Under the pieces are notes generated by a model. The model was given only the letters and a program-made list of their open reading frames with translations, searched no databases and was not told where the DNA came from. Of a stretch of DNA of 64,000 bases, positions 2,454 to 63,932 are shown one piece after another. This DNA is from Eledone cirrhosa (lineage: Eukaryota). Where the stretch lies: assembly GCA_964016885.1 (NCBI GenBank), contig OZ024742.1:132494001-132558000 (forward strand). Reading direction: 5' to 3'. Every line of letters starts with the position of its first letter. Position 1 is the first letter of the stretch. Both the position numbers and the translations under genes were made by a program.

Positions 2454-2511
<58 letters not shown>

Positions 2512-2514
<3 letters not shown>

Positions 2515-3380
2515 GGAAAAAATGAAACGAAATTTCATTTCCCACTCTTAGTACGGCTGTTACTTAAATATAAGTATGTACACATACATACATATATGAA
2601 TACAGACGTACAGTAGTATGTATATATATATACATAAATGCACACTTATATGTATGTACGTATGGATAAACCGAACATTTATTATAATGCACGGTGTGTT
2701 TGTAAACAAACATCCCGTATTAAGCCGTAGTGTCTAGCAACCATCGTTGCTCGTTTGTTCAACACTGACAAAGGAACGCTGTACTAGTTTGAAGCTTATT
2801 AGCTATCGTCAGCAACGTATACTTTCCGGCCAGATTGTTGAACGTATAATAAATGTTCGGTGAATCCATACGTACATATATATATATATATATGTGTGCA
2901 TGTATGTATATATATATATACATACTACTGTACGCCTCTATACATATATGTATGTACGTGTACATACTTATATTTAAGTAACAGCCGTGCTCAGTGTGGG
3001 AAATGAAATTTCGTTTCATTTTTTCAGTTTATCGTTTTCGGTGCACGCGGCCGATTAACCCACTCGATATGCAAATTTGGCTACTCAGCCAAGGTAAGTA
3101 TATACGTTCAAAAATCTGCCAGGAAGGTATACGTTGCTGACGATAGCTAATAAGCTTGAAACTAGTACAGCATTCCTTTGTCAGTGTTGAACAAACGAGC
3201 AACGATGGATGCTAGACACTATGGCTTAATACGGGATGTTTGTTTACAAACACACCGAGCATTATAATAAATGTTCGGTGAATCCATACGTACATATATA
3301 TATGTGTGCATGTATGTATATATATATGCATACTACTGTACGTCTGTATACATATATGTATGTACGTGTACATACTAATA
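2512..3380 (+). mobile_element. Retrozyme-like element, ~418-nt monomer with 5' inversion
   Basis: tataataaatgttcggtgaatcc repeats at 2845 and 3263; 2512-2846 is an inverted copy; another fragment at 40703-41040. Confidence 0.8.
3133..3171 (+). ncRNA. Type I hammerhead ribozyme
   Basis: gttg-CTGACGA-tagc taataa gctt-GAAA-ctag-TA-cagc; palindromic stem III ACTAGT. Confidence 0.85.
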
Positions 3381-3402
3381 TATATATATATATATATATA
3401 TT

Positions 3403-13204: not shown

Positions 13205-13275
<71 letters not shown>

Positions 13276-13422
13276 GTAGTAGACTGACCTCCCTGCCTTT
13301 GCTTACACACGGCACTGGACGGAATTGATTCCACATCATTTATTCTCATCTCGGGAACAATTTTGAATAGCGCCAGTTCGTAATTTGAAGTCGGGGATTT
13401 TATATTCTCCGAGTGAAAAGAT

Positions 13423-13507
13423 CCTTCTGACGAGAGTTTATCTTTGCAATGGATGGCCGCAAGGACTGTCCATTTATTTTTGACACTCGAAACCGATTCG
13501 GTAAATG
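13423..13507 (+). ncRNA. Hammerhead ribozyme with extended stem II
   Basis: cctt-CTGACGA-gagt...actc-GAA-ACCG att CGGT-A-aatg. Confidence 0.85.
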
Positions 13508-13906
13508 TAACCATAGTGACTACACTTAATTTTTTAAAATTTATTTTGAAACTTTTTCTTATTTGCTAAACCTTGATTATATATGTTCTGGCTCGTTAAT
13601 TTATTAACCTGCCATTGAACCACATTGGCATATGGTTGGACAATACGTGTGTCCCTAGACGCTTTTGGCGTGTAGGGATTTATACTTTATTATTATTCTC
13701 CTCTTGGTCGAGAAAAACATTTGGTCGTTCTGACTGCTGCTATTTATAGTGGTACTAGACGGACCTCCCCGCCTTTGCTTCTATCTTTAAACACGGCACT
13801 GGACGGAATTGATTCCACATCATTTATTCTCATCTCGGGAACAATTTTGAATAGCGCAAGTTCGTAATTTGAAATCGGGAATTTTATATTCTCCGAGTGA
13901 AAAGCT

Positions 13907-13991
13907 CCTTCTGACGAGAGTTTATCTTTGCAATGGATGGCCGCTAGGACAGTCCATTTATTTTTGAGACTCGAAACCGATTCGGTAAAGG
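13907..13991 (+). ncRNA. Hammerhead ribozyme with extended stem II
   Basis: cctt-CTGACGA-gagttt...agactc-GAA-ACCG att CGGT-A-aagg; perfect stem I. Confidence 0.9.
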
Positions 13992-14061
13992 TAACCATAG
14001 TGAGTACAGGTAATTTTTTAAAATTTATTTTGAAACTTTTTCTTATTTACTAAACCTTGAT

Positions 14062-14088
<27 letters not shown>

Positions 14089-14092
<4 letters not shown>

Positions 14093-14760
14093 AATTAAGT
14101 TAAAAATGTACATCTACATATGCATACTGAAATACTAGTGTGTATATGGATACACACACGTATACATATGTAGGTGTAACAAGTCTTTCACTGGTTGCTT
14201 TACTGTGAGCAACCCAGCTATTCTGTATGTAAACACACAGACAAACCGGTTTTTAGAGTCATACTGGTTTTCGGGGGAACACCTTCCCTCTATTCTCCAG
14301 AAAGCCAGACAAGGAATATTGAACTAGTTTCGTTGTTGTTACAACTCATCAGCAATATTTACCTATCTACCGGCCCTTCTGGAGAATTGTAAAAGCACAT
14401 ATCGTTATATGCTTTTTCTATGAAAATTAGTAGTGGGCAGACTAATTTGCATAGAGTGTGAGTACGCACCGGTTCAGCGGAGACGATAAAAACAAATAAC
14501 GAAACGAAATTAAATTTCGTTTCGTTTGTAACTCACTTTTGTATGACTGACGCTTAACCGCTTAATAGCTGGGTTGCTCACAGTAAAGCAACCAGTGAAA
14601 GACTTGTTACACCTACATATGTATACGTGTGTGTATTCATATACACACTAGTATTTCAGTATGCATATGTAGATGTACATTTTTAACTTAATTGTTTAAG
14701 CGTCAGTCATACAAAAGTGAGTTACAAACGAAACGAAATTTAATTTCGTTTCGTTATTTG

Positions 14761-14767
<7 letters not shown>
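14089..14767 (-). mobile_element. Retrozyme-like element, ~468-nt monomer plus junction-spanning inversion
   Basis: A(14089-14222)-core-B(14486-14557), then revcomp(A) and revcomp(B) at 14564-14767. Confidence 0.85.
14315..14359 (-). ncRNA. Type I hammerhead ribozyme
   Basis: minus: aatattg-CTGATGA-gttg taacaa caac-GAAA-ctag-TT-caatatt; all stems perfect. Confidence 0.92.
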
Positions 14768-14834
<67 letters not shown>

Positions 14835-15241: not shown

Positions 15242-15310
<69 letters not shown>

Positions 15311-15465
15311 GTTTGAATATGTATAATAAAGCCAAAACAATGCAGGTATGGACATAGAAAAAGAATGCAATTGCAAAAGATATTGTTGACAATTCGTCTT
15401 TTACCTTAGATTTATTTTAAATGTCCTTCATTTTCGAGATAATATCTCTTCTTCAGAGGGAAATA

Positions 15466-17542
15466 AACACCAACAGAGGCGAACAATACGGTACCAACAC
15501 CGAACCTAGCGGCGCCCCAACCAACAACACACCTGACGCAAAACACCTTGTCACAGACTTGACAGGATCCCTCTCCCGAGAGGAATTAGACCTCCTCAGC
15601 CTGGGTCCCAAGTTCATATTGAAACAGAGACTGGACGACAAATTATGGCTCGACATAGAAACGAATTTCTGTCGGGCTACCTACCAACTAAAATGGATAT
15701 CGACTCTCGACAACAACACCACGGAATCCACCAAACCCAGATTCCCGATATACCAACTAGATTGCCCACTCTGTCCACCGCCTGCCAACCGCGAGATTGA
15801 AGAAAAACTCTCGAGACTAAAACATTCCGTATTTAACATATTACGGAAACAGAAGAAGATAGCCCCAAACCTCTCCAGGACACAACAACTCGCCCTGAGG
15901 AACCTACGGAATAGGGAACTTATATACTTACAATCCGACAAAGGTAAAGAGTTTTGCGTCATCTCTCAAGCCACATACGATAACCTAGCCTTTGAACACC
16001 TAAGCGACAATGAATTATACACAGAGAACCCGGACATGACTGCAGCCCAGATCGAAAAACAGACCAACTCCATTTGGTTCGATATCTGCAGGAGAAGACA
16101 ACTCCCAAATAAAGTTAAGCTCAACTACACCACTAGAAATAGCAGACGGCCCACTTGCTACCACCTCATCAAGACCCACAAGAATAGTACTGAGACGCAA
16201 ATAAGACCCACCGTGTCTAGCATAGAAGGACCCCTATACAAAATTTCCTGGCTCCTCTCCCAGGTCCTCAAGCCTCTACTCTCCACCTTTCCCGGGCATG
16301 TCAGTAGCTCCGACGAAGACTACACCAACTCCAGCCAGAACAATTTAAACTAAATAAATACGCTTTTAGCCTCGGCGTTGTCTCCCTCTACACTACAGTC
16401 CCCGCTCATCCAGCTGTCGATTTATTGACGGACTGCGTGGTCGCAGAGGACATCCACTGCTACGGCGTCCACCCGACAGACATACACCAGCTTCTGTCCT
16501 TCACAGTAGACAACACGTATTTCACCTTCCACCACCACACATACATACAGACAACAGGATTACCCATGGGATCCAGCCTATCGGGCCTGCTGGCAATCAC
16601 CTACATGAACCAGCTAAAATGCCGAGCCCTCAACACCTGCCATTCCCATGCCTTCTTCACCCGATATGTAGATGACATACTCATCCTTACATCATCCCGT
16701 GAGGAGGCAGATAAAATATACACAACATTCTCCAGCATCGACGCCAGTATAAAGTTCGTTATGGAACACTCCGATGACCGCGGATCCCTATCCCTACTGG
16801 ACTTCCAACTCAGGGTAACAGAGGAAGGCAATATCCACACCTGCTTCTATAAAAAGCCACCAGCAGGGCCCTGTTCGCACCCTCCCACTCGGTGCCAAGT
16901 TCGGATACATAAGGAACGAATTGGCACGTATCCGGAACAAATGCACCGACGCTAGAGACCGAGACACACACACCACACATTTCCTGGAAGTACTCAAACT
17001 GAACGGATACACGACATCCACCACAAACCGTACCAGAAATAACAGAGGACACCACACCCGAGGCACTAACACTTGCTTCCTGAAGCTCCCACACTTCAGT
17101 GACGAAACAACAGCCATCCGCAGAGCTATCAGACGAGAGGGACTAGATATCCAACTGGCCCACTCAGGTCCTTCTCTACGCGGACAGCTAACCAACAGCC
17201 ACTCCAGCAGACATGACAACTGCTGCAGGCTAGCCAACTGCCCATCAACGACACAGACCTGTGCCACCAGGCTTATGTCGTATACAGACTAGAGTGTGAC
17301 AAATGCAACAACTTCTACGTAGGTAGCACCACCAGACCACTCCACATAAGAATAAAAGAACACCTCAATACTAACGCTTTCTCATTTAAGAAACACCTAG
17401 TTAAATGCAAAACCACCGACAAAACCATAACAGTTAGGATAGAAACCTCGGCAATCTTAGAATTAAGAAAGCACTAATTATAGATAAAACACAACCACCA
17501 ATCAATAATAGACTAGAACTCAACACCCAATTTATAACATGA
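15466..17542 (+). pseudogene. PLE reverse transcriptase-GIY-YIG endonuclease (frameshifted)
   Basis: LLSLGPKF, SDKG, IRPTVS, GLPMGSSLS, RYVDDI, LNGY, VYRLECDKCNNFYVGSTTRPLHIRIKEH. Confidence 0.93.
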
Positions 17543-17935
17543 TAGGGCTTCTAGCTCCATATTTACATCCCCCACACACACACGCACGCACACACACACA
17601 CACGCTTACACCTCCACTTATTCTCTCTCACACATACACACACAAAACCAGTTCTAACACCAGATAACACCTATCCCCCAAATTTACGAATAGACTTATC
17701 TTCTCACACTCATACACACACACACTCACATTCTTACACCTTCATGCATTCTCCCACACACTTAAACAGGCAGGTATATTTAAAAAAACCCTAAACAAAC
17801 CCCTTTTAAAGGGAGACTACTCTTTATCCACCTAATTTTAACTCTTTGATATTAGAGATAGAACAGATACTCTATACTATTTCCTGTCAGCATGGCTTGG
17901 CAAGATATTTAGAACGCTCGTTTGAGACCTTTATT

Positions 17936-17973
17936 TCCCTCTGAAGAAGAGATATTATCTCGAAAATTAAGGA
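17936..17973 (+). ncRNA. Minimal pLTR hammerhead
   Basis: cct-CTGAAGA-a-gaga tatta tctc-GAAA-at-TA-agg; inverted copy at ~15424-15461. Confidence 0.85.
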
Positions 17974-18150
17974 CATTTAAAATAAATCTAAGGTAAAAGA
18001 CGAATTGTTAACAATATCTTTTGCAATTGCATTCTTTTTTCTATGTCCATACCTGCACTGTTTTGGCTTTATTATACATATTCAAACGTTTATACCTCAT
18101 TACACAATGCTTCAAATGAACTATAACCTCCTCCTATATATATATATATA

Positions 18151-23098: not shown

Positions 23099-26019
23099 GT
23101 ATAGCCAAACCCATCGAAACACTCTTCGAATACGTCTATTTATATGATGTGTGTGTGTGTGTGTGGGGTGTGTGTGTGTGTGTTGGTGTGTGTGTGTGTG
23201 TGGGTGTGTGCGGGTGTGTTGGTGTGACTGAGTGTGTATGTGTGTGTGAGTATGTGTGTGTGTATGGGTTTGGATGCATATTTGCGCCTGTAGGTATATG
23301 TCTAATATACATATTTACACATATATGTAAGGTGTATTTCCGCAAACAGACCAATATACATTCATATACGCACAAACACATATATACACGATGAAGATTA
23401 TTTATACAGTCACGTGTAGGCATAAGTACACACACAGACACACACACATAAAAACAACTTTGGACCAGCCTCCTTTTCGATCCAAATCACATTAGCATAC
23501 TCAAATATCCTTCAGGTGTGCGGACGCTATTCAATACACGCAAGAGAGAGGAGCTCCAAGAAAACCACCACTTTCAACAGTCCTGCAATAATAGCTCACC
23601 AACAAACCAACATAACAACACATCAACACACCAAAACAACAGCAACATTAGCAACACAACATCTACTAAACCCAAGTATCTATTATCCACATTAATTTAA
23701 CAAGGTACATCTGTATTCCCTGACTGTATTGCAAATCCATGATTTGCTCACTCAGTGAGTTCGTCTGTAGTTAGTTTGATGTTGTTATGTTGTGTGAAGT
23801 GTTGCGATTGTCCTCAAGTATTTTGCAATTTACTCTGCGTATGTGAATGTGTTTGAAAATAGAGAGAGTTTATACGTTATGTTTATTTCAGGTAGTGTCC
23901 GTTAAGATGGTGTATTCTAAGGTGGTGTGTTCGTGTGTTAAGGTAGTAGGTTTAAGTTGAGAGAATGCTGTTGAATAAATTAGGTGAGTAATATAACGAG
24001 TTTATACGTGCACATGCACGCCCAAACCAACAAAGCGCACAAAAATCACGCGTACAAAGAAACACACACGTACACACGAATACACAAAAACAGATATTTG
24101 CGTAGGAGTGTGTACAACGGTGTAATGAAATACTGATATGCATATTTAAAAATATATTCATACGTATGTAAGCAAATGTCGTCAAACAAATAGGTGCGCG
24201 CCAATCCATACACATACACATATATGTATATTTATATATATTCATATTATATGCTTACACACATGCACACACACATACACACTCACACACACACACACAC
24301 ACGCACATACACACGCACACACATATTAATATATATATATATCTTAAACAAAAGCTAACCTGAAATCGACAGCTTCAACGCACTGTTTGTACCATTAAAT
24401 ATATTTCAGGTTTGGCATATAAGCACTTAACGGTTATGCTACCATAATATCGAAAGGAAACTGACGCTTTTTTTTCTCCTTAGATTAAAGCTACACCAAC
24501 AAACCTGGATAAAGGAAACAGTCTACTTTTAGAAACATTAAGCAACGGGTGGCACTGTCCACCTTGTTCCTTGGGGTCATCTTCTATTTCAAATTTCGTA
24601 ACATTCTCAACGGTTAAATATAGACTGCTTCTTTAACCTGGCTGATTGATATAACAGTTATATCAATCAGAGAGCCAGTGTAATGGAAGTATAGCCATAC
24701 GAAATACACTAATGTTGAGTTCAAGTGTGAATGGTGATGCTATCTGAGAAAATGAATTAGAAAAAAAAGTAGATGAAGAGGATATAGAAAGGAAAGAAAT
24801 TTATTTGGATAGTATTGTGGCTGAAGAATATACTGGGGAATGATAGATGTGACTGTGTTTGAAGATACAGGTATAGATATCTGTCAACAAGTTAGGCTAG
24901 TTGGGTGCAAAAATTCGTATGGGTAATACACCCACAAAAAACTAATACACATACGGGCACAAGTTTACTCACGCACACACATATATAAACACACATATAG
25001 ACACGCTTACTCGTACATACATATACACAAACACATATACATATATACGCATACATATTTAAACACATAGATATATACAAATATTTATATCCTAAGGTTT
25101 TCATAATTGGCGTGGGAATAGGCCTGCGAATCTATACTCTAATAAGATGATCCAAAAGGCGAAGCACATCTCCTGGCCATCCCGTTGTAGAGAAGTTTAG
25201 AAATGACATGGAAAATGAACAAGTGCGAGATACTGGCGGCTTCATACTAAGTGATCCGTGTAGTCTGTGCTTGTTAGCCTGGGGGATGGGAGACTACATG
25301 TTTAGGAGAAAGGTCAGTCTAATTTCGAAACTGGCTAGATGGGACGCATTAACTAGAGCTATGACAATACATCAGTGCACCGTAACTTAGAAAACCCTAT
25401 AGTATGAGTCAGGGAGTGCAGTCAGTTCGCTCTAAATGAAGGACCCGGAACTGCTGTTAGGGCATTCTTCTACGAGAGGGAAAGTCTGGATTGAAACATG
25501 CGATTACCAGGATTACTGGTTATCTTGCTTTGAGTTTCCACAGTGACTTGGAGATTAGCACCAGTGCTACAGAAGTGGTTGTTAGCATAATCGAATGATG
25601 TACAAATGCAGATGTATGATTTAAAATCATCTCAGCTGTCAAATTATCTGTGTATCTTTAGTTTCCTACTTCGATTGTCCAACACAATCCAAACTCTGAA
25701 TATTTGGCACTGAATATAGACAGCAGATATAATCTGCGGGTGGTTGGGGTGTGGCATGAGATGGCACCAAATAAATACCTCCACCTCTGTAGGTTTGTCA
25801 CTTCGGATGGTGCAGTATAGATGATAGCCACGCAAACTGTATGCTATGTCGGAAATTTGTCGAAGGGGGGGGGGGGGGGGCTTCATTATGCCATGTTGGT
25901 GTATATCTTTCGCATGGGCTGAAAGATGCTGCGTATGATGGCAATGATCAGCGAAGATAGAGCAATCATCTCTCCCATATGTATGTATATATATATTATA
26001 TATATATATATATATATAT

Positions 26020-26532
26020 TTCGTTTCTGAATTTGTTTAGCAAGATTCTTTATCTGAAATCGTGTGTTGAAACCGATATTGTTATACTTTGGGAGGGTCA
26101 TGGGGTCATGTTGCCAATAAGAAATACACGCACCAGTTGCTTTCACTTCAATTTATTATAATAAATTTATAATAAATTTATAAATTTATAAATTTCTGGT
26201 TGGTTGGTTGGTTCCACAACCAGATAGGTGTTTATATATTGTCATAGTGCTTTCGTCACACACTCTGTGACCTCTTCAGTGACTGGGGATTCCTTTCTTT
26301 GTTTTTGTGCCTCTCCTTTGTTCTGTCCTACGCCATTTTTTTTCACTGAAGAGGTCACAGAGTGTGTGACGAAAGAACTATGACAATATATAAACAACTA
26401 TCTGGTTGTGGAACCAACCAACCAACCAGAAATTTATAAATTTATAAATTTATTATAAATTTATTATAATAAATTGAAGTGAAAGCAACTGGTGCGTGTC
26501 TTTCTTATTGGCAACATGACCCTCCCAAAGTA

Positions 26533-26535
<3 letters not shown>
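26020..26535. mobile_element. Fold-back pLTR, high-copy family K, two HHRs
   Basis: HHR at 26241-26283(-) and 26343-26384(+): CTGAAGA-g-gtcaca gagtg tgtgac-GAAAgaacT-tgac. Confidence 0.9.
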
Positions 26536-26589
<54 letters not shown>

Positions 26590-26591
<2 letters not shown>

Positions 26592-27345
26592 TTTCTGAAT
26601 TTGTTTAGAAAGATTCTTTATCTGAAAACGTGTTTTGAAGCCGATATTCTTATACTTTGGAAGGGTCATGTTGCCAATAAGGAAAACACGCACCAGACGT
26701 TTCACTTCAATTTATTATAATAAATTTATAAATTTAGAAATTTATAAATTTCCGGTTGGTTGGTTAGTTCCACAACCAGATGGTTGTTTATATATTGTCA
26801 AAGTTCTTTCGTCACGCATTTTGTGACCTCTTCAGTGACTGGGGGTTCTTTTCTTTGTTTTTTGTGCCTCTCCTTTGTTCTGTCCTACGCCATCTTGTTT
26901 CTGTGTGTGTGTTGTGTGCTTAGTTTGCGCATGTTTTACATCCGGGTGTCTGTGTGTGTTTATATTCGTTTATTTATTTGTTTATTTACATGTTACTGGT
27001 TGGTTGTTTGTTCTATGTGCGTGTGTGTTGTCATTTTGTCCTTAATTGTATGTATTGATGTTGCTGTTCCACTCATGTTTTCTATTAAATTTTGGTTGTA
27101 ATTCATTTATGTTTATTGCTTCTGTGATTTGTCTAAACATTGCGTCTTTTCTGTCTGTAGATTCTGTTTTTATTTCTATGTTCTCTAATTTAACATTATG
27201 TTCTATTTTAGCATGTTGGTAGAGTACAGATGATTCTTTACTATCTTGAAGGTCTCGCCAGAAGGAACGGATCGAACGGATAAACGAACACTGGCGAGAA
27301 AGCAACTGGTGCGTGTGTTTCTTATTGGCAACATGACCCTCCCTA
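26590..27345 (-). mobile_element. Family K PLE 3' end (GIY-YIG C-terminus plus pLTR) with short inverted end
   Basis: ORF 27042-27305 [11 protein letters not shown]...[23 protein letters not shown]; HHR at 26797-26839. Confidence 0.85.
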
Positions 27346-27350
27346 AGTAT

Positions 27351-27447
<97 letters not shown>

Positions 27448-27470
27448 CATATACGTATATATATACATAA

Positions 27471-27561
<91 letters not shown>

Positions 27562-27569
27562 TATATAGT

Positions 27570-29120
27570 TATACTTGGGGAGGGTCATATTTGTGTAATA
27601 TTGCCAGATTAATAACAGAACACACTCACTGTTCGGTTGCTTTTCGCTTTTCGCTTCTGTGTCTTTTATATCGGTTAATTTTATTCGGTCCTCAATGTTG
27701 CCATTGACTGACCAACGGTCAAAAATACAGATACAATATAGACACAAACACATATATATAGTCTATCAAAGTTCTTTCGTTGCACATCTGCAACATCGTC
27801 AGTGGTGCTATTGTTTCCTCCCGTTGCATCGTATGTCTACGCCATCTTTATTTAGTCTGTTTATATACTTATTTATTTGTTTATTTTGTTGTCTTCTTTG
27901 CGCATGCGTTGTGCGTGTGTGTATAGTGTTCTGTTTGATGTGTGTTCGTGTTTGCGTGACTGTGTATTGGTTAATGTATTCTATCTTTACTAGTGTGTGT
28001 TTATATGTGTTTGTTGTTGTTGTGCTTGTGTATGTATTTATTTATTTATCTATTTATTTATTTATTTATTTATTTATACTTCTCTTAGGTCAGTGTTGTT
28101 TGTTTGGGTGTTGTTGTTATTCCATTCATTATTTATGTTTAGCCTTGGCCTTCTAAGTTCTATTTCACTGGCCTCTCTGATTTGCCTGTCTGCTGGGTCA
28201 TTTCTATGTTTAGATATTATTCTAATTTCTATGTTGTCTATGATACCGTCGTGTTGTTGTCTGGCATGTTCCTATAGTACTGAACCGTTTTTTCGTCCTT
28301 TTATCCCAATGTTGGTCTATCCTTTCAATTATGTTACGAACTATCTCGCCTATGTATGTTGTTGTCATGTTTCTGCAAGTACCCTCTGTACATCTTATGC
28401 TATAGACTACGTTTCTAGTTTTACAGTTTATCCGGGGGTTTACGTTACATATGATACATTTCCTGTTAGTACAGTGGGTTTTCTTAAAAGGGTAGGTTTT
28501 GCTGATCAGGGATTGTATGGTGGTTCAGGCTTTTCTACCACCTTAATCTTTAAGTGGGTCTTTCTCAGGGCCTTTCTACACTGGTTAGCTAATTTCCCTC
28601 CAGGGGTAGCGTCCACAAACATGAGACTCTGGTATCTTTGGTTGTCGTACCATGAGGTGGCTTTGCCTATCTTATGTCTAGCCTAATCTAAGCTTTCCAT
28701 GATTTGCTCTTGTATAATGGACAAATTTCTTTCATGTCCAGTCCTATGAGGGTCTTATACTTCTCCGTGGATCCTTCGTATAATCTGATTCTATCTCTTT
28801 GGTTGTAGCCAGAGAACTGCATGCGCTTGATGAAGTGTTGGATGTGTATTTCCATTTATGTTGGGTCGAACATGCGGGACACATTCTTCATGACTCGTAC
28901 CATGTCTGCGATTAGAATACTACTGGACATTGTTGAGTTTTTGAATATCAGCTATATGGAGGCTATGTGTTTAGCATAGTGTGAGTGGAGAATTTGTGCT
29001 GTTATTAATTCTGGCAATATTACACAAATATGACCCACCCCAAGTATAACAATATTTGTTTCGACACCCGATTTCATATAAAACACCTCGCAAAACTAAT
29101 TCATCGCCGTCATATATATA
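27570..29120 (-). mobile_element. PLE family L (sister of K): RT-thumb and GIY-YIG remnant with pLTR HHR
   Basis: Minus-strand RMQFSGY, FVDATPGG, KIKVVEK, CKTRNVVYSIRC, YIGE, RQIREA..NEWN; HHR at 27764-27806; inverted tail 29005-29120. Confidence 0.8.
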
Positions 29121-30413: not shown

Positions 30414-30722
30414 ATATATAAGATCAAAAAATGGTTAAAAGTGTTCCATGTATTTTATTATGCGCATTTCAAAAACAAATATCAACATGCAATAACAAGT
30501 GTTTTTTAACCTTCATATCATGTCTTCCTATTTTATCTGATGAAAACACAAATGTTATTGCATGATGATATTTGTTTTTGAAATGCGCATAATAAAATAC
30601 ATGGAACTCTTTTAACCATCTTTTGATCTTATATATTATGTATACTCCAGTCCTACAAACTGTAGAGTGCTTCTTATCCGATATCAGCATTGCTTTATTG
30701 TACTACAATAAAACTCACCTCC

Positions 30723-32083: not shown

Positions 32084-32352
32084 TATTAAAATAACAGATT
32101 AAAGTTGAAGTAAAGAATCGCTGCTTTCACCCATAACGGATCTTCTGAAACTAAAAAAATCAATATGTGAACGCAGAAGTAAATATTAAAAAAAAACGTT
32201 GCAACTGGGGGAAGAGAGGAAGACGATACTTTAGTTCATGGTAACGTTCCCTGGCAAAGAACGGGAAAAAACGAAGATAAACGTCATTATTTGGAGCGGT
32301 GAAAAACAATTACACGCAAAGACAAAACCACGTTTTTGGTATAAAAGAAGTC

Positions 32353-33855
32353 GTATTAGATAGAATTATACCTGAAATTAGAAGTTTGGCTCCTCTTGCA
32401 CTGTGGAACAATTCTTTCGCGGTGATTGATTGATTCAACGCCATGTGCAACAAGGAACATTGCCGTTTTATCCAATTCGACATCAATAATTACTACTCCT
32501 CCATCGCTTTACCACTTCTCCTTAGAGCTATCAATTTCGCTAAAACACTCACAGTGGTTAAGGATTTCGAAGTTGATGTCATCGTCATTGCCCGTAAGTC
32601 GGTGATTAATTTCGACAACTATATTTGGATTAAAACATCTAATAGTACCCCATTCGACGCGAGTATGGGCGCCAGCGATTCTGCGGAGGTTACTGATCTA
32701 TCGGCCTTTTCCTTCTTTTCTCTATCAAGGAAGAATTCCCCAACGTGGACAGTGGTTTGTACCGTGATGATGGTCTTTTGACCATGACAAAGTGCGGCCC
32801 ACGTGCTTGCGACAGGTACAGAAAAGAACTCACAGCCTTCTTTACAGGCTTCAACCTCTCCATACAGGTTGAGACCAACCTCTCGGTCGTTAATTACCTC
32901 GAAGCTACCCTCAATTTGTCGAATGGCTTGCACTACCCGTATAGAAAGACGAAAGATAAGCTTAATTACATAAGTAAGCATTCTAACCATCCTGCCAGCA
33001 TAAACTAGAACTTGGTAAGAAACGTTTCTTTGAGACTTTCCCGTCTACCTAATAACGAGCATATTTTCAACGACCATTCCACATATTACAATGAAGCTCT
33101 GGCTCGGAGTGGATTTGTCGTTAAGGTAGCATATACAGTGTACGAGAATAGACCTAAAAAAATAGGTCCCGACGCATTATATGGTATAACCCACCATATA
33201 ATATGATGGAGGTGGCCAGATCATTAGCTAAGATCTTTCTATCCCTTATTATGAAGAATTTTCCACCAACACATAAATATAGTAACATTTTTATAGAAAT
33301 ACAATTAAAATGTCTTACTCTATGACTCCTAACCTTGCACATAACATCACAGCTTTAAATTTAGCTAAACTACCGAGCCGTAGGAACACGTGCAACCCTG
33401 TAGCTAGTACTAACTGTAATTGTAGGAATCGGGTTGACTGCCTCCTATTCGGAAAATGCCTCTCTAGTAACATTGTCTACAAATATAAGGTTGAAACACC
33501 CACGTTCCGTAGGGCCTACATAGGGTTAACCACCAATAGATTCAAAGGGCGTCTTTACATGCATGCCCATTCTTTTCTTAACCCTTTATGAAGGAATATG
33601 ACGTCACTTTCAGCTTATATCTGGAGTCTAAAAGACAACCACACCCAAGATAAGTTACACTGGGAGATCCTAGCTAGGGCTAGATCGTATAACCGAAATA
33701 AAAGACAATGTGACCTCTGCGCCGTTGAGGCCCTGGAAATACTCTACGCCAAAGATCACATCTTAAACAAAAAATCTGAGGCAATTTCTGCTTGTAAACA
33801 TAAATTGCACAAAACGTTCCTGTGTTACAGCCCCACATTATACCCTAACGGATAG
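32353..33855 (+). pseudogene. PLE RT-CxC-GIY-YIG (frameshifted)
   Basis: FIQFDI, MGASDSAEV, GLYRDDGL, YRK..SNHP, CNCRNRVDC, VYKY..YIGLT..FKGR, CDLC. Confidence 0.92.
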
Positions 33856-39478: not shown

Positions 39479-39542
39479 ATATATATATGTGTGTGTGTGC
39501 GTGTGGGTCTGTATATATGTAAATATATATATGTATATATAC

Positions 39543-39589
<47 letters not shown>

Positions 39590-39595
39590 TATAAA

Positions 39596-39645
<50 letters not shown>

Positions 39646-39651
39646 TATAAA

Positions 39652-39711
<60 letters not shown>

Positions 39712-39713
<2 letters not shown>

Positions 39714-40215
39714 GTTATACTTTGCGAGGGTCATGTTGCCAATAAGAAACGAACACACTAATGGCTTTCGCTCCAATTTTTATAAATTAACAAAAAAAAA
39801 TATTTTATTTTTTCAAAAAATGTATAAATTTCCGGTTGGCTGGTTGGCTCGACAACCGGGCAGTTGTTCATATATTGTCAAAGTTCTTTCGTCCCACATT
39901 CTGTGACCTCTTCAGTAACTGGGGATTCTTTTCTTTGTTTTGTTCCTTCTCCTTTGTTCTGTCCTATGCGATCTTGTTTTTGTGTGTGTTGTGTGCTTAG
40001 TTTGCGCATGTGTTACACCCGGGTGTCTGTGTGTGTTTTTACAACCAACCGGAAACTTATAAATTATTTTTAAATTTATAATAAATTGGAGTGAAAGCAG
40101 TGGTGCGTGTGTTTTTCATTGGCAACATGACTCTCCCAAAGTATAACAATATCGGTTTAAACACGTTTTCCGATAAAGAATCTTGCTAAACAAATTCCGA
40201 AACGATTCAAATGGT
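39712..40215. mobile_element. Family K fold-back copy
   Basis: Matches 26590-26960; HHR at ~39877-39919(-). Confidence 0.85.
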
Positions 40216-40660
40216 GTATTGTATATATATATAAATTAAACAAAGTCACAGATACATATATACGTTTGGCAAACATTCAGGGTGTGGCTCAATGAACAAT
40301 TAATTAAATAATTATTAATCAGAGCAATTTATAAAATTGTAAGTCCAAAGAATCATAGGATAAATTATATACAGTATTTCCCCTCCCATTTTTTTTCTAA
40401 CTTCAATTTCGTACCTAGATCCGTGTAGTTAACTATTTGTCTAGTCAATCTCTACAGGGGAGGAGAAATACTAGGTAAATGTCACATGGTTGTACATCGT
40501 GGAAAGGAATCTGTATCATTTGTCTATTATTCCTTCATAAGTACGTTTTAAACTTATAGCCTCGTTTAAATGATGTTTGTGTGTTTAACTGATTGGGAGA
40601 GGAAATACTGTATATATTTTATCTAATAATTCTTTGGACTTACACACACATATGTATATA

Positions 40661-51304: not shown

Positions 51305-51790
51305 AGATAAACAGAACAAGCAAGATTCAAACAATTTTTAAAGTTAAATTAAAAAATATAATTTAAATATTTACTTATTCCAATTGCTTTTACCGATCGG
51401 TTTCACTTCACAAAAGATTGGAGATCCATAGAGACCTCCAATGGAAAAGTTTAGATCATCAGAAAGCATATTCCTTTCCTAGGACTAAAAGTCCCAGGAA
51501 CGGCAAAATATATTGCCATCTGCCAGCTAGCACAGGATCGAATGGGGCCGAAAATTTGAAATATGCATGAACCAATCTTTTGTGAAGTGAAACCGATCGC
51601 AATTGGAATAAGTAAATATTTAAATTATATGTTTTAATTTATTTTAAAAAATTGTTTGAATCTTACTTGTTCTGCTTATCTCAATATTATAGTTCTGGTA
51701 TGTCAAATTAAAACCATAGAACAACCCTTGTATCATAGACACCCTATATATTTCCAGTGGTACTTAGTACCTGTGGTCATATTAACTTCC
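51300..51790. mobile_element. Family H inverted pLTR plus leader upstream of a PLE ORF
   Basis: HHR 51385-51468(-) tgcttt-CTGATGA...GAA-ACCGATCGGT-A-aaagca; arms ~51300-51420 and ~51572-51686. Confidence 0.8.
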
Positions 51791-53430
51791 ACGGCCACCC
51801 TACTTCACACTGAAGGACCACAAATCCGATTTCGACTGTAAACCATCTATCAGGCTTATAAACCCAACGAAGTCCGACATAGGGAGAATCAGCAAAACAA
51901 TCCTAGACCGCGTGATACCTAAAGTCAAGCAACACGCTCGTCTTAGCCTATGGATCAATACCCAGGAAGTTATCTCATGGTTCAGCAATTTGGAGGATAA
52001 ACGAGACACTAAATTTATCCAGTTCAACATAGAGAGCTACTATGCTTCAATCACCTTACCGCTACTTACTGCCGCCTTGGACTCCGCCGAAGCACTTGTG
52101 CCCATCACCGACCAGGAAAGAAAAATCATCCTCCACACCAGGAAGACAGTCTTACTCTTTGACAACTCCAAATGGATAAAAAGAGCTCCTGACTCACCCT
52201 TCGACGTCGGCATGGGCGCTACGGATTCGGCGGAGGTCACAGATCTTATAGGATTATTCCTTATAGCCAAACTCACCGATATGTTTCCTGCTTTCGGTGG
52301 TGGATTGTACCGTGATGATGAATCCTTACCCTTACAGGGTACAACTCCAGTAGTACAGATCGGGTCGGTAAAAAATTAATCAGCTTCTTCCGCGACTGGG
52401 GATTTAAAATAACACTACAAACGTCCCTGACCCGAGTTAATTTCCTGGATGTTACCCTCGATCTCAATAATGACCTGTACTACCCATACAGGAAACCCAA
52501 TGACAACCTGCACTACATCCACCGCCGATCTAACCATCCCAGGAACATCACCAACAACCTGGTCAAAAACATCTCCCTCCGTATATCCCGTTTGTCAGCT
52601 AATGAGAAGATATTCGATGAACATGCGCCTTACTACAACCAGGCCCTCAAGCGGAGTGGTTTCCGGGAGGAAATATCCTACTGTCCAGCTCCCATTAGCG
52701 GAACCAGCAGGCGACACCGCCGCTCACGCAATGTAACATGGTTCAATCCTCCCCACAACGCTGAGGTGACAACTCCCATCGGGAAAATTTTCTTTAGGCT
52801 CATTGAAAAACACTTCCCACCACAACATCGCTACCACAACATAGTTAACAAAAATACCATCAAACTCTCTTACAGCACTACACCCAACTTCGCACAAAAC
52901 ATCGTCTCCTCCAACAACAAAAAACTCAACCCCGATGGAAGAAACAACCTAAATAGCAGTGGAGAGCCGACCAGGAGGTGCAACTGTCCTGATAGATCCA
53001 GTTGCCCCCTCGACAACAGATGCAGAGACCGTAATGTGATCTACCAGTGCAACGTGAGCACGGACACCTCCAACAAAGCTTATATAGGATTAACCGCATG
53101 CGACTTCAAGACCCGGCTATACCAACACAGACATACCGTCCGAAACCCGGCACGGCGTCACGCCACTACACTTTCGGGCCACATATGGGACCTCAAGGAC
53201 AACAACATCAACTATGATCTCACTTGGAAATTACTGTCCAGAGCCAACTCTTACACGGGATGACGCCGTCCGTGCAATTTATGCTCGGAGGAAACATTAC
53301 AAATGCTGTTTTCGACGGACCAACTCCTAAACAAGAAAGATAAACTGGTTACTGCATGTAAACACCGATTACGTAGGACTTACCTCGCCCTCAAACCCCA
53401 TAATGACCCGGGGGGGGGGGGGGTAGACTA
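51786..53430 (+). pseudogene. PLE RT-CxC-GIY-YIG (probably Hydra clade), N-terminus missing
   Basis: TLKDHK..RLINPTKS, FIQFNI, MGATDSAEV, GLYRDD, NFLDVTLDL, WFNPP, CNCPDRSSCPL, IYQC..YIGLT..FKTR, CNLC. Confidence 0.93.
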
Positions 53431-63291: not shown

Positions 63292-63333
<42 letters not shown>

Positions 63334-63336
63334 TAA

Positions 63337-63932
<596 letters not shown>

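Follow-up and report, generated by a model that had tools for sequence, protein, structure and literature searches.

PLE insertions have a recognisable form: an inverted copy is present, a tail of 30-40 bp often sits on a single end, and the insertions are biased towards (TA)n and carry target duplications of 8-10 bp (PMC8557442, PMC3846280). A PLE protein has been described that cuts and extends both strands of AT-rich DNA, using two internal RNA start sites that bound the tail, with no requirement for ribozyme cleavage (PMC11167929). How the inverted and tailed structures are formed is treated as unsettled in these accounts (PMC8557442, PMC3846280, PMC11167929). It has also been argued, from co-occurrence and phylogeny, that PLEs move retrozymes (PMC7229834; bioRxiv 10.64898/2026.07.22.740005), and the Discussion of bioRxiv 10.64898/2026.07.22.740005 calls the mobilisation mechanism unresolved. 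Metazoan hammerheads with a short palindromic helix III are reported to act as dimers (PMC4209133).

The locus considered here lies at positions 14089-14767 of the window, by which we mean the whole 64,000-nt stretch of Eledone cirrhosa DNA that was analysed, and is one ordinary copy of a very abundant non-coding repeat, in itself unremarkable (Table 1). A preliminary description had read it as an exact unit-length monomer of ~468 nt, A-core-B, followed by the reverse complement of B plus A, with the forward copy's end joined directly to its start in the inverted segment. This layout was recovered with small corrections, and its repeats score well above chance (repeat search, E 4e-65). Read from its outer end, the inverted arm (14564-14767) runs from unit position 398 to 467 and then from 1 to 134, with one mismatch in 204 nt, and the end-to-start junction falls at 14697/14698, in this arm only. 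The tandem spacing of unit matches sets the period at 467 nt, and arm 1 exceeds the unit by two nt. What the description had left out is that this layout is the known Penelope signature of an inverted pLTR plus tail. Terminal direct repeats are absent, the layout being tandem and inverted with no LTR structure, and the six-frame list of the window contains no ORF of ≥150 aa within the element. The RNA sense of the unit is presumably the minus strand, with the RNA 3' end of arm 1 pointing outward; the inner priming site is likely to be the outer end of arm 1, at unit position 1, and the outer priming site that of arm 2, at unit 398.

Table 1. Features of the locus, in positions of the 64,000-nt window.
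Feature	Positions	Strand	Basis
Left (TA)n target	14062..14088	.	sequence
Arm 1: 467-nt unit (14089-14555) plus 2 nt of the following unit	14089..14557	+	
Long hairpin (predicted), directly upstream of the inner priming site in RNA sense	14107..14182	-	
Type I hammerhead with extended stem I; core 14359-14315	14299..14370	-	
Octamer-like ATGCAAAT within a predicted hairpin	14445..14452	-	
70-nt tail (unit 398-467), with hairpin at 14498-14526	14486..14555	+	
Filler of 6 nt where the two arms meet, a slipped re-copy of the last bases of arm 1	14558..14563	.	
Arm 2, inner part: unit 134 to 1, inverted	14564..14697	-	
Arm 2, outer part: tail (unit 467 to 398)	14698..14767	-	
Right (TA)n target; pure TA hides any target duplication	14768..14830	.	

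Since the end-to-start junction is present in the inverted arm, the template RNA was tandem or circular; to that extent the earlier claim of reverse transcription around a circular or tandem RNA stands, a circle being one possible form of the template. In 12 of 49 loci, this one included, each arm holds sequence that the other lacks, so that DNA fold-back, or copying of one arm from the other's DNA, is excluded for the locus. That the whole arrangement is a local DNA rearrangement (an inverted duplication) or an assembly artefact is scarcely credible: inverted repeats in TA tracts do assemble poorly, but the inverted arm holds the junction and 134 nt missing from the forward arm, the same 12 loci are alike in this respect, and the end rule described below repeats across contigs and families.

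Each unit carries one type I hammerhead. The preliminary description had called the one at 14315-14359 (minus strand) perfect; its position, canonical core and stems I and II were upheld, and perfection was not, as stem III, a 6-nt palindrome, has no loop and GUU is the cleavage triplet. The predicted cut falls between 14322 and 14321. Against the Rfam model HH9 the locus hammerhead scores 38.6 bits (E 1.2e-7), the gathering score being 52, and at that threshold the locus gives no Rfam match. Elsewhere the triplet is GUC in one copy of a sister subfamily and GUA in others. The predicted fold of a monomer mispairs or buries the hammerhead core, and two copies co-fold into a dimeric hammerhead; with its palindromic stem III, the active fold is predicted to need a second copy, and the capacity for self-cleavage is putative. 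Among eight sequences of related families, 7 of 17 hammerhead pairs are altered on both sides, compared with at most two such pairs in slid alignments, a control in which the sequences are related and the shuffle counts are not probabilities.

The rest of the unit is also predicted to be highly structured. The minus-strand linear fold gives a z of -9.8, pointing to stable self-pairing, and a modelled circular fold of the unit closes at the hammerhead. The 70-nt tail is the best-conserved part of the unit, with 99.0% identity to the window copy as against 91.9% and 95.2% elsewhere (positional sample, see below). The hairpin next to the inner priming site and the octamer-like element are both retained in the sister family. 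A promoter role of the snRNA type, as in newt satellite 2, was considered for the octamer; the literature searched gave no support for it, and it is no more than a lead. Contigs of four sequencing runs of undeclared kind cover the unit with variants, at a depth that is not readable as expression. Unit pieces with few differences occur in contigs of runs X5 and X6 (organisms B and C), and the family is therefore not confined to the Eledone cirrhosa genome.

Exact copies of the 35-nt ribozyme motif number 5,067 in the genome (reversed control, 0), and a looser motif of the wider ribozyme group gives 39,533 matches (reversed control, 1). Searching with the unit returned at least 214 matches, from 40 of 634 candidates; the family is dispersed over many contigs, in arrays that reach 31 units. 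The first 100 exact motif matches on contig 1 collapse to 27 loci, from which a rough extrapolation gives ~1,400 loci. Two samples were mapped: a score-ranked set of 54 non-redundant loci (duplicates such as L027 and L028 having been dropped), with 39 inverted and 15 single-armed by BLAST, and a positional set made up of the 27 loci from contig 1, two of them common to both sets. L014 and L081, counted as single-armed, each have a tiny second arm.

Comparison of the mapped loci revealed that the outer ends fall at two fixed sites 70 nt apart, unit positions 1-6 and 397-400. Among clear inverted loci with both ends at these sites, each site is used once in 49 of 50 (p 4.5e-14). In the score-ranked set, 34 of the 39 inverted loci have outer ends at 1-5 and 398-400, and the five rule-breakers are L003, L048 and L049 (an off-site end), L119 (8/1) and L120/L165 (nested); the 15 single-arm copies terminate at either of the two sites. 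In the positional set 21 of 27 loci are inverted and have one outer end at each site (15 clear, one interrupted, five with arms <32 nt), one is inverted off-rule and five are single-armed. The locus described as the clearest footprint of this kind is thus one of many, and the genomic copies are not free circular permutations of the unit, as a check proposed with that description had anticipated.

The inner ends of the arms behave differently from these fixed outer ends, the 98 inner ends being indistinguishable from a uniform distribution (KS p 0.16). Only 1 of 98 lies within five nt of the unit boundary (two if the present locus is scored exactly), where 2.3 are expected, and as inner ends look random, the near-unit length of arm 1 can be put down to chance. 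An arm of unit length was therefore rejected as a sign of one turn around a circle; an apparent excess of 10/98 ends at the boundary was a product of dropping pieces <32 nt and disappeared with a longer reference. Run-off at the hammerhead cut was likewise dismissed (2/98 ends against 2.3 expected).

Insertions of the family are flanked by (TA)n. An 8-nt target duplication containing non-TA letters was seen in 4 of 34 loci (L034, L043, L096 and L106); in the remaining loci duplications are mostly unreadable in TA, and L033 and L088 have no exact match. By BLAST ends, the arms overlap at 36 of 49 joints, meet bluntly at two and are separated by filler at 11, with the caveat that BLAST extension inflates overlaps and that exact extension shows filler at the present locus. 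The longer arm carries the tail in 30 of 49 loci and the shorter arm in 19 (p 0.15), as is expected from two independent cDNAs. All the features looked for as marks of PLE-type insertion were found: an inverted 5'-truncated copy, a one-end tail, two fixed 3' ends, an AT-rich target and a target duplication. In one side case (L165:1644-4382), a sister element of 87% identity, with a GUC triplet and compensatory changes, has a copy of the family inserted in its tail hairpin.

The same genome contains coding PLEs that can be compared directly. PLE-A was recovered intact, as a 900-aa open frame with RVT_1 and GIY-YIG; its ends lie 532 and 572 nt past the stop, and by our own reading 9 of 12 inverted loci with both ends visible have one of each. 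PLE-B was also recovered intact, as a 784-aa open frame with no Pfam match, which we take from its cysteine motif to be Neptune-like; it ends ~1207 and 1290 nt past the stop, and six inverted loci have one end of each kind (again our own reading). The two-end rule of the retrozyme is the PLE "tail", and the same rule holds in coding PLE-A and PLE-B. A 423-nt sister retrozyme aligns with the unit over its whole length and ends at 215-219 and 274-276 in seven inverted loci, with two further inverted loci ending at 267; these end sites are at homologous places, and the 87% subfamily obeys the same rule. The tail length of PLE-B is the closest to the retrozyme's 70 nt, which gives only a hint at the driver.

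The window itself holds several of these elements and others besides. A copy of the 423-nt sister retrozyme, with a tail of ~57-60 nt and the same inverted layout, is found at 2509-3384, and a first look at the genome gave 2,578 candidates for this family. A frameshifted PLE-A lies 500 nt to the right of the locus (15287-18094), with inverted ends at 532/573; intact 900-aa relatives occur elsewhere, in tandem at 3,127 nt. At 51786-53410 there is a broken, Neptune-like PLE-B, whose unit is 3,531 nt long with a tail of ~83 nt and in which a motif scan found no hammerhead, and at 32341-33852 a broken Neptune-like PLE, 46-52% identical to PLE-B; it brings the PLE families of the window to three and is, along with other families, a candidate driver. 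Another repeat family, which has a minus-strand hammerhead-like motif and inverted pieces, appears at 25977-27614, 39500-40240 and 63300-63860, and a PLE-like C-terminal frame without Pfam matches at 27042-27584. A third type of hammerhead-like motif, in which stem III is a TA palindrome, occurs at 1714-1762, 30529-30599 and 38796-38736. Immediately left of the locus, a tandem repeat with ~480-nt spacing (13265-13584 and 13741-14068, 92% alike) ends at the left (TA)n target and includes a weak hammerhead-like match at 13907-13991.

We found no DNA similarity of the unit to PLE-A or PLE-B, the two intact families compared, and no examined copy of the family runs into a coding PLE frame. A single ORF with a telomerase-like RT and a GIY-YIG endonuclease is absent from the family, which is therefore not an autonomous PLE. 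The unit could instead be only the pLTR of a coding PLE, left behind as a 5'-truncated copy, given that truncated PLEs yield inverted copies consisting of pLTRs alone and that ~80 of roughly 1,400 extrapolated loci were inspected. We disfavour this reading and consider it very improbable: head-to-tail arrays of up to 31 units are devoid of coding DNA (L246-247), the element has no ORF of 150 aa, and wherever a PLE protein match lies near an examined locus, (TA)n stands between it and the unit or the match is a short one to another element's end. Neptune-like frames beside L173, L191, L248 and L250 were considered as the coding partner and set aside as separate insertions, split off by (TA)n.

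Being non-coding, hammerhead-bearing and tandem, the 467-nt unit would be filed as an animal non-LTR retrozyme, with expression and cleavage putative, and the family appears to work like a non-autonomous PLE. Our preferred explanation, which we hold to be probable, is that a non-LTR retrozyme was inserted back-to-back in (TA)n by a PLE endonuclease/RT that primed both cut strands on one RNA. The repeat would be transcribed as the minus strand, to give a multimer and/or a hammerhead-cut, ligated circle; a PLE protein would bind the conserved tail and cut both (TA)n strands ~8 bp apart; one target end would prime at unit position 1 and the other at 398; both cDNAs would pass the unit junction and halt at random; and their 3' ends would join through short microhomology or filler, leaving an inversion, with arrays expanding later through DNA-level duplication. 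Against insertion driven by a PLE stand the lack of similarity between the unit and the two intact families, the 70-nt tail compared with 30-40 nt in published elements (~83 in PLE-B here), the five of 39 score-ranked inverted loci that break the rule, and the inexact target ends of L033 and L088. In addition, what PMC3846280 says on cross-mobilisation between rotifer PLE families is that evidence for it is lacking.

The alleles carried by the two arms bear on whether one RNA served both. Non-majority alleles are present in both arms in 25 of 34 inverted loci, and of 49 sites at which one arm has such an allele fixed, 48 show agreement in the other arm. This shared haplotype, together with the geometry of the arms, is read most simply as twin priming on one RNA. 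The shared haplotype would be equally expected, however, from the fold-back of one self-priming RNA, and this weighs against two-primer insertion. The self-priming model (PMC3846280) starts from an antisense RNA that, by folding back, acts as its own primer; prior to integration, the endonuclease would resolve the resulting hairpin with a stagger of 70 nt. Such a model predicts a single template for both arms and microhomology or palindromes at the joints, and the overlap of ≥1 nt at 36 of 49 joints by BLAST ends, often at unit stems, is in keeping with it. We nevertheless regard self-priming as unlikely, since target-primed starts on sense RNA have been described at both tail-bounding sites (PMC11167929), and single-arm ends at either site and a tail on either arm would call for extra steps.

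Two-primer insertion on one RNA can be combined with either kind of template, and here our view is less firm. Rolling-circle reverse transcription around a 467-nt monomer circle, made by hammerhead cleavage and host ligation, is compatible with the explanation we prefer, differing only in its template, and is quite possible. L252 comprises 20 units over 9.3 kb with both arms identical save for a single base where they join; uniform arrays also occur at L265 and L255, and nearly uniform ones at L031 and L032. Furthermore, 8 of 37 informative loci have alleles, 12 in total, that every covering unit in the two arms carries and that no other sampled locus shows, and such locus-private fixation is the mark of a one-unit bottleneck. 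The predicted circular fold that closes at the hammerhead, and the occurrence of other animal retrozymes as circles (PMC7229834), also fit. On the other hand, circles alone fit poorly with four derived alleles, in 3 of 37 loci, that occupy the same unit number in both arms and are not present throughout (L026 twice, L033 and L096); these were hand-picked from 25 rows, the rest being the ancestral base in 2/3 units or mirror rows, and a rough estimate puts recurrence at fewer than one same-unit case among 159 single-unit alleles, with gene conversion between arms a possibility. L034 alternates with a period of two units and, like those alleles, points to some templates with unlike units; arm ends do not pile up at one full turn, and uncut RNA was the main substrate of the one PLE tested in vitro (PMC11167929). 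Arrays also grow at the DNA level (L037, L038, L253 and L246), the shared alleles restricted to one arm in L037, L038 and L253 and the higher-order repeats of L033 and L246 indicating expansion after insertion, and array length is therefore not simply cDNA length. As a separate observation, the 31-unit array L246-L247 (G000:C1:5738094-5752750), with its higher-order patterns, looks like a retrozyme insertion becoming a satellite. Overall, we lean towards templates that were mainly uncut multimers or a mix, and a mainly monomer-circle template is a serious contender that we stop short of favouring. More speculatively, a PLE protein dimer may prime both cut target strands on one 467-nt RNA circle, at two sites separated by 70 nt, and roll by strand displacement, producing palindromes of up to 10 kb. 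If true, this would explain the inverted-plus-tail structure of PLEs by a single mechanism, and the genome itself would then establish retrozyme circles as true intermediates of transposition.

The importance of these results rests with the family as a test bed, not with the single locus at 14089-14767. Retrozyme insertions here bear the PLE footprint directly, and its insertions, roughly one thousand of them and all short, young and haplotype-marked, make it possible to test by counting whether one template served two primers and whether that template was a circle or a multimer. The 467-nt unit is also a substrate with defined start sites for an in vitro PLE assay. We found no description of a tail and inversion rule for a retrozyme and no proposal of twin priming for PLEs; both are weak absence claims, made within a literature that takes in few subscription papers. 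Twin priming of L1 starts from two target ends on a single RNA, and joining of the cDNAs leaves an inversion. The second L1 primer anneals at a variable internal site and the segments abut, whereas in the family both starts are fixed and both arms copy the same sequence. Non-autonomous PLEs of Chlamys such as MRC1 are also non-coding, with multicopy head-to-tail insertions bearing pLTRs, but they generally share 3' sequence with an autonomous family (PMC8557442), and no such partner was found here.

The family resembles metazoan non-LTR retrozymes (PMC7229834; bioRxiv 10.64898/2026.07.22.740005) in its non-coding, low-GC tandem unit with one type I hammerhead, its range from dimers to long multimers, its strong self-pairing and its coexistence with PLEs, and dimer-dependent amphibian forms have a short palindromic helix III, as here. 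Such retrozymes are quoted at 150-450 bp, and the Eledone cirrhosa unit, at 467 nt, is slightly above that range; circles have been demonstrated for the published ones, whereas this family is known from genomic sequence. Unlike them, most loci here are inverted, have a PLE tail and lie in (TA)n, with no sequence link to a PLE pLTR found, a layout of which word searches in the main texts of the two papers returned no description. With PLEs (PMC11167929, PMC8557442, PMC3846280) the family shares two fixed 3' ends bounding a tail that is on one end, an inverted 5'-truncated copy, partial tandems, AT-rich or (TA)n targets, a target duplication of ~8 bp and a hammerhead upstream of the start sites. 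It differs from PLEs in having no ORF, a tail of 70 nt rather than 30-40 and a unit of 467 nt, and because the unit is so short, many units fit in one insertion.
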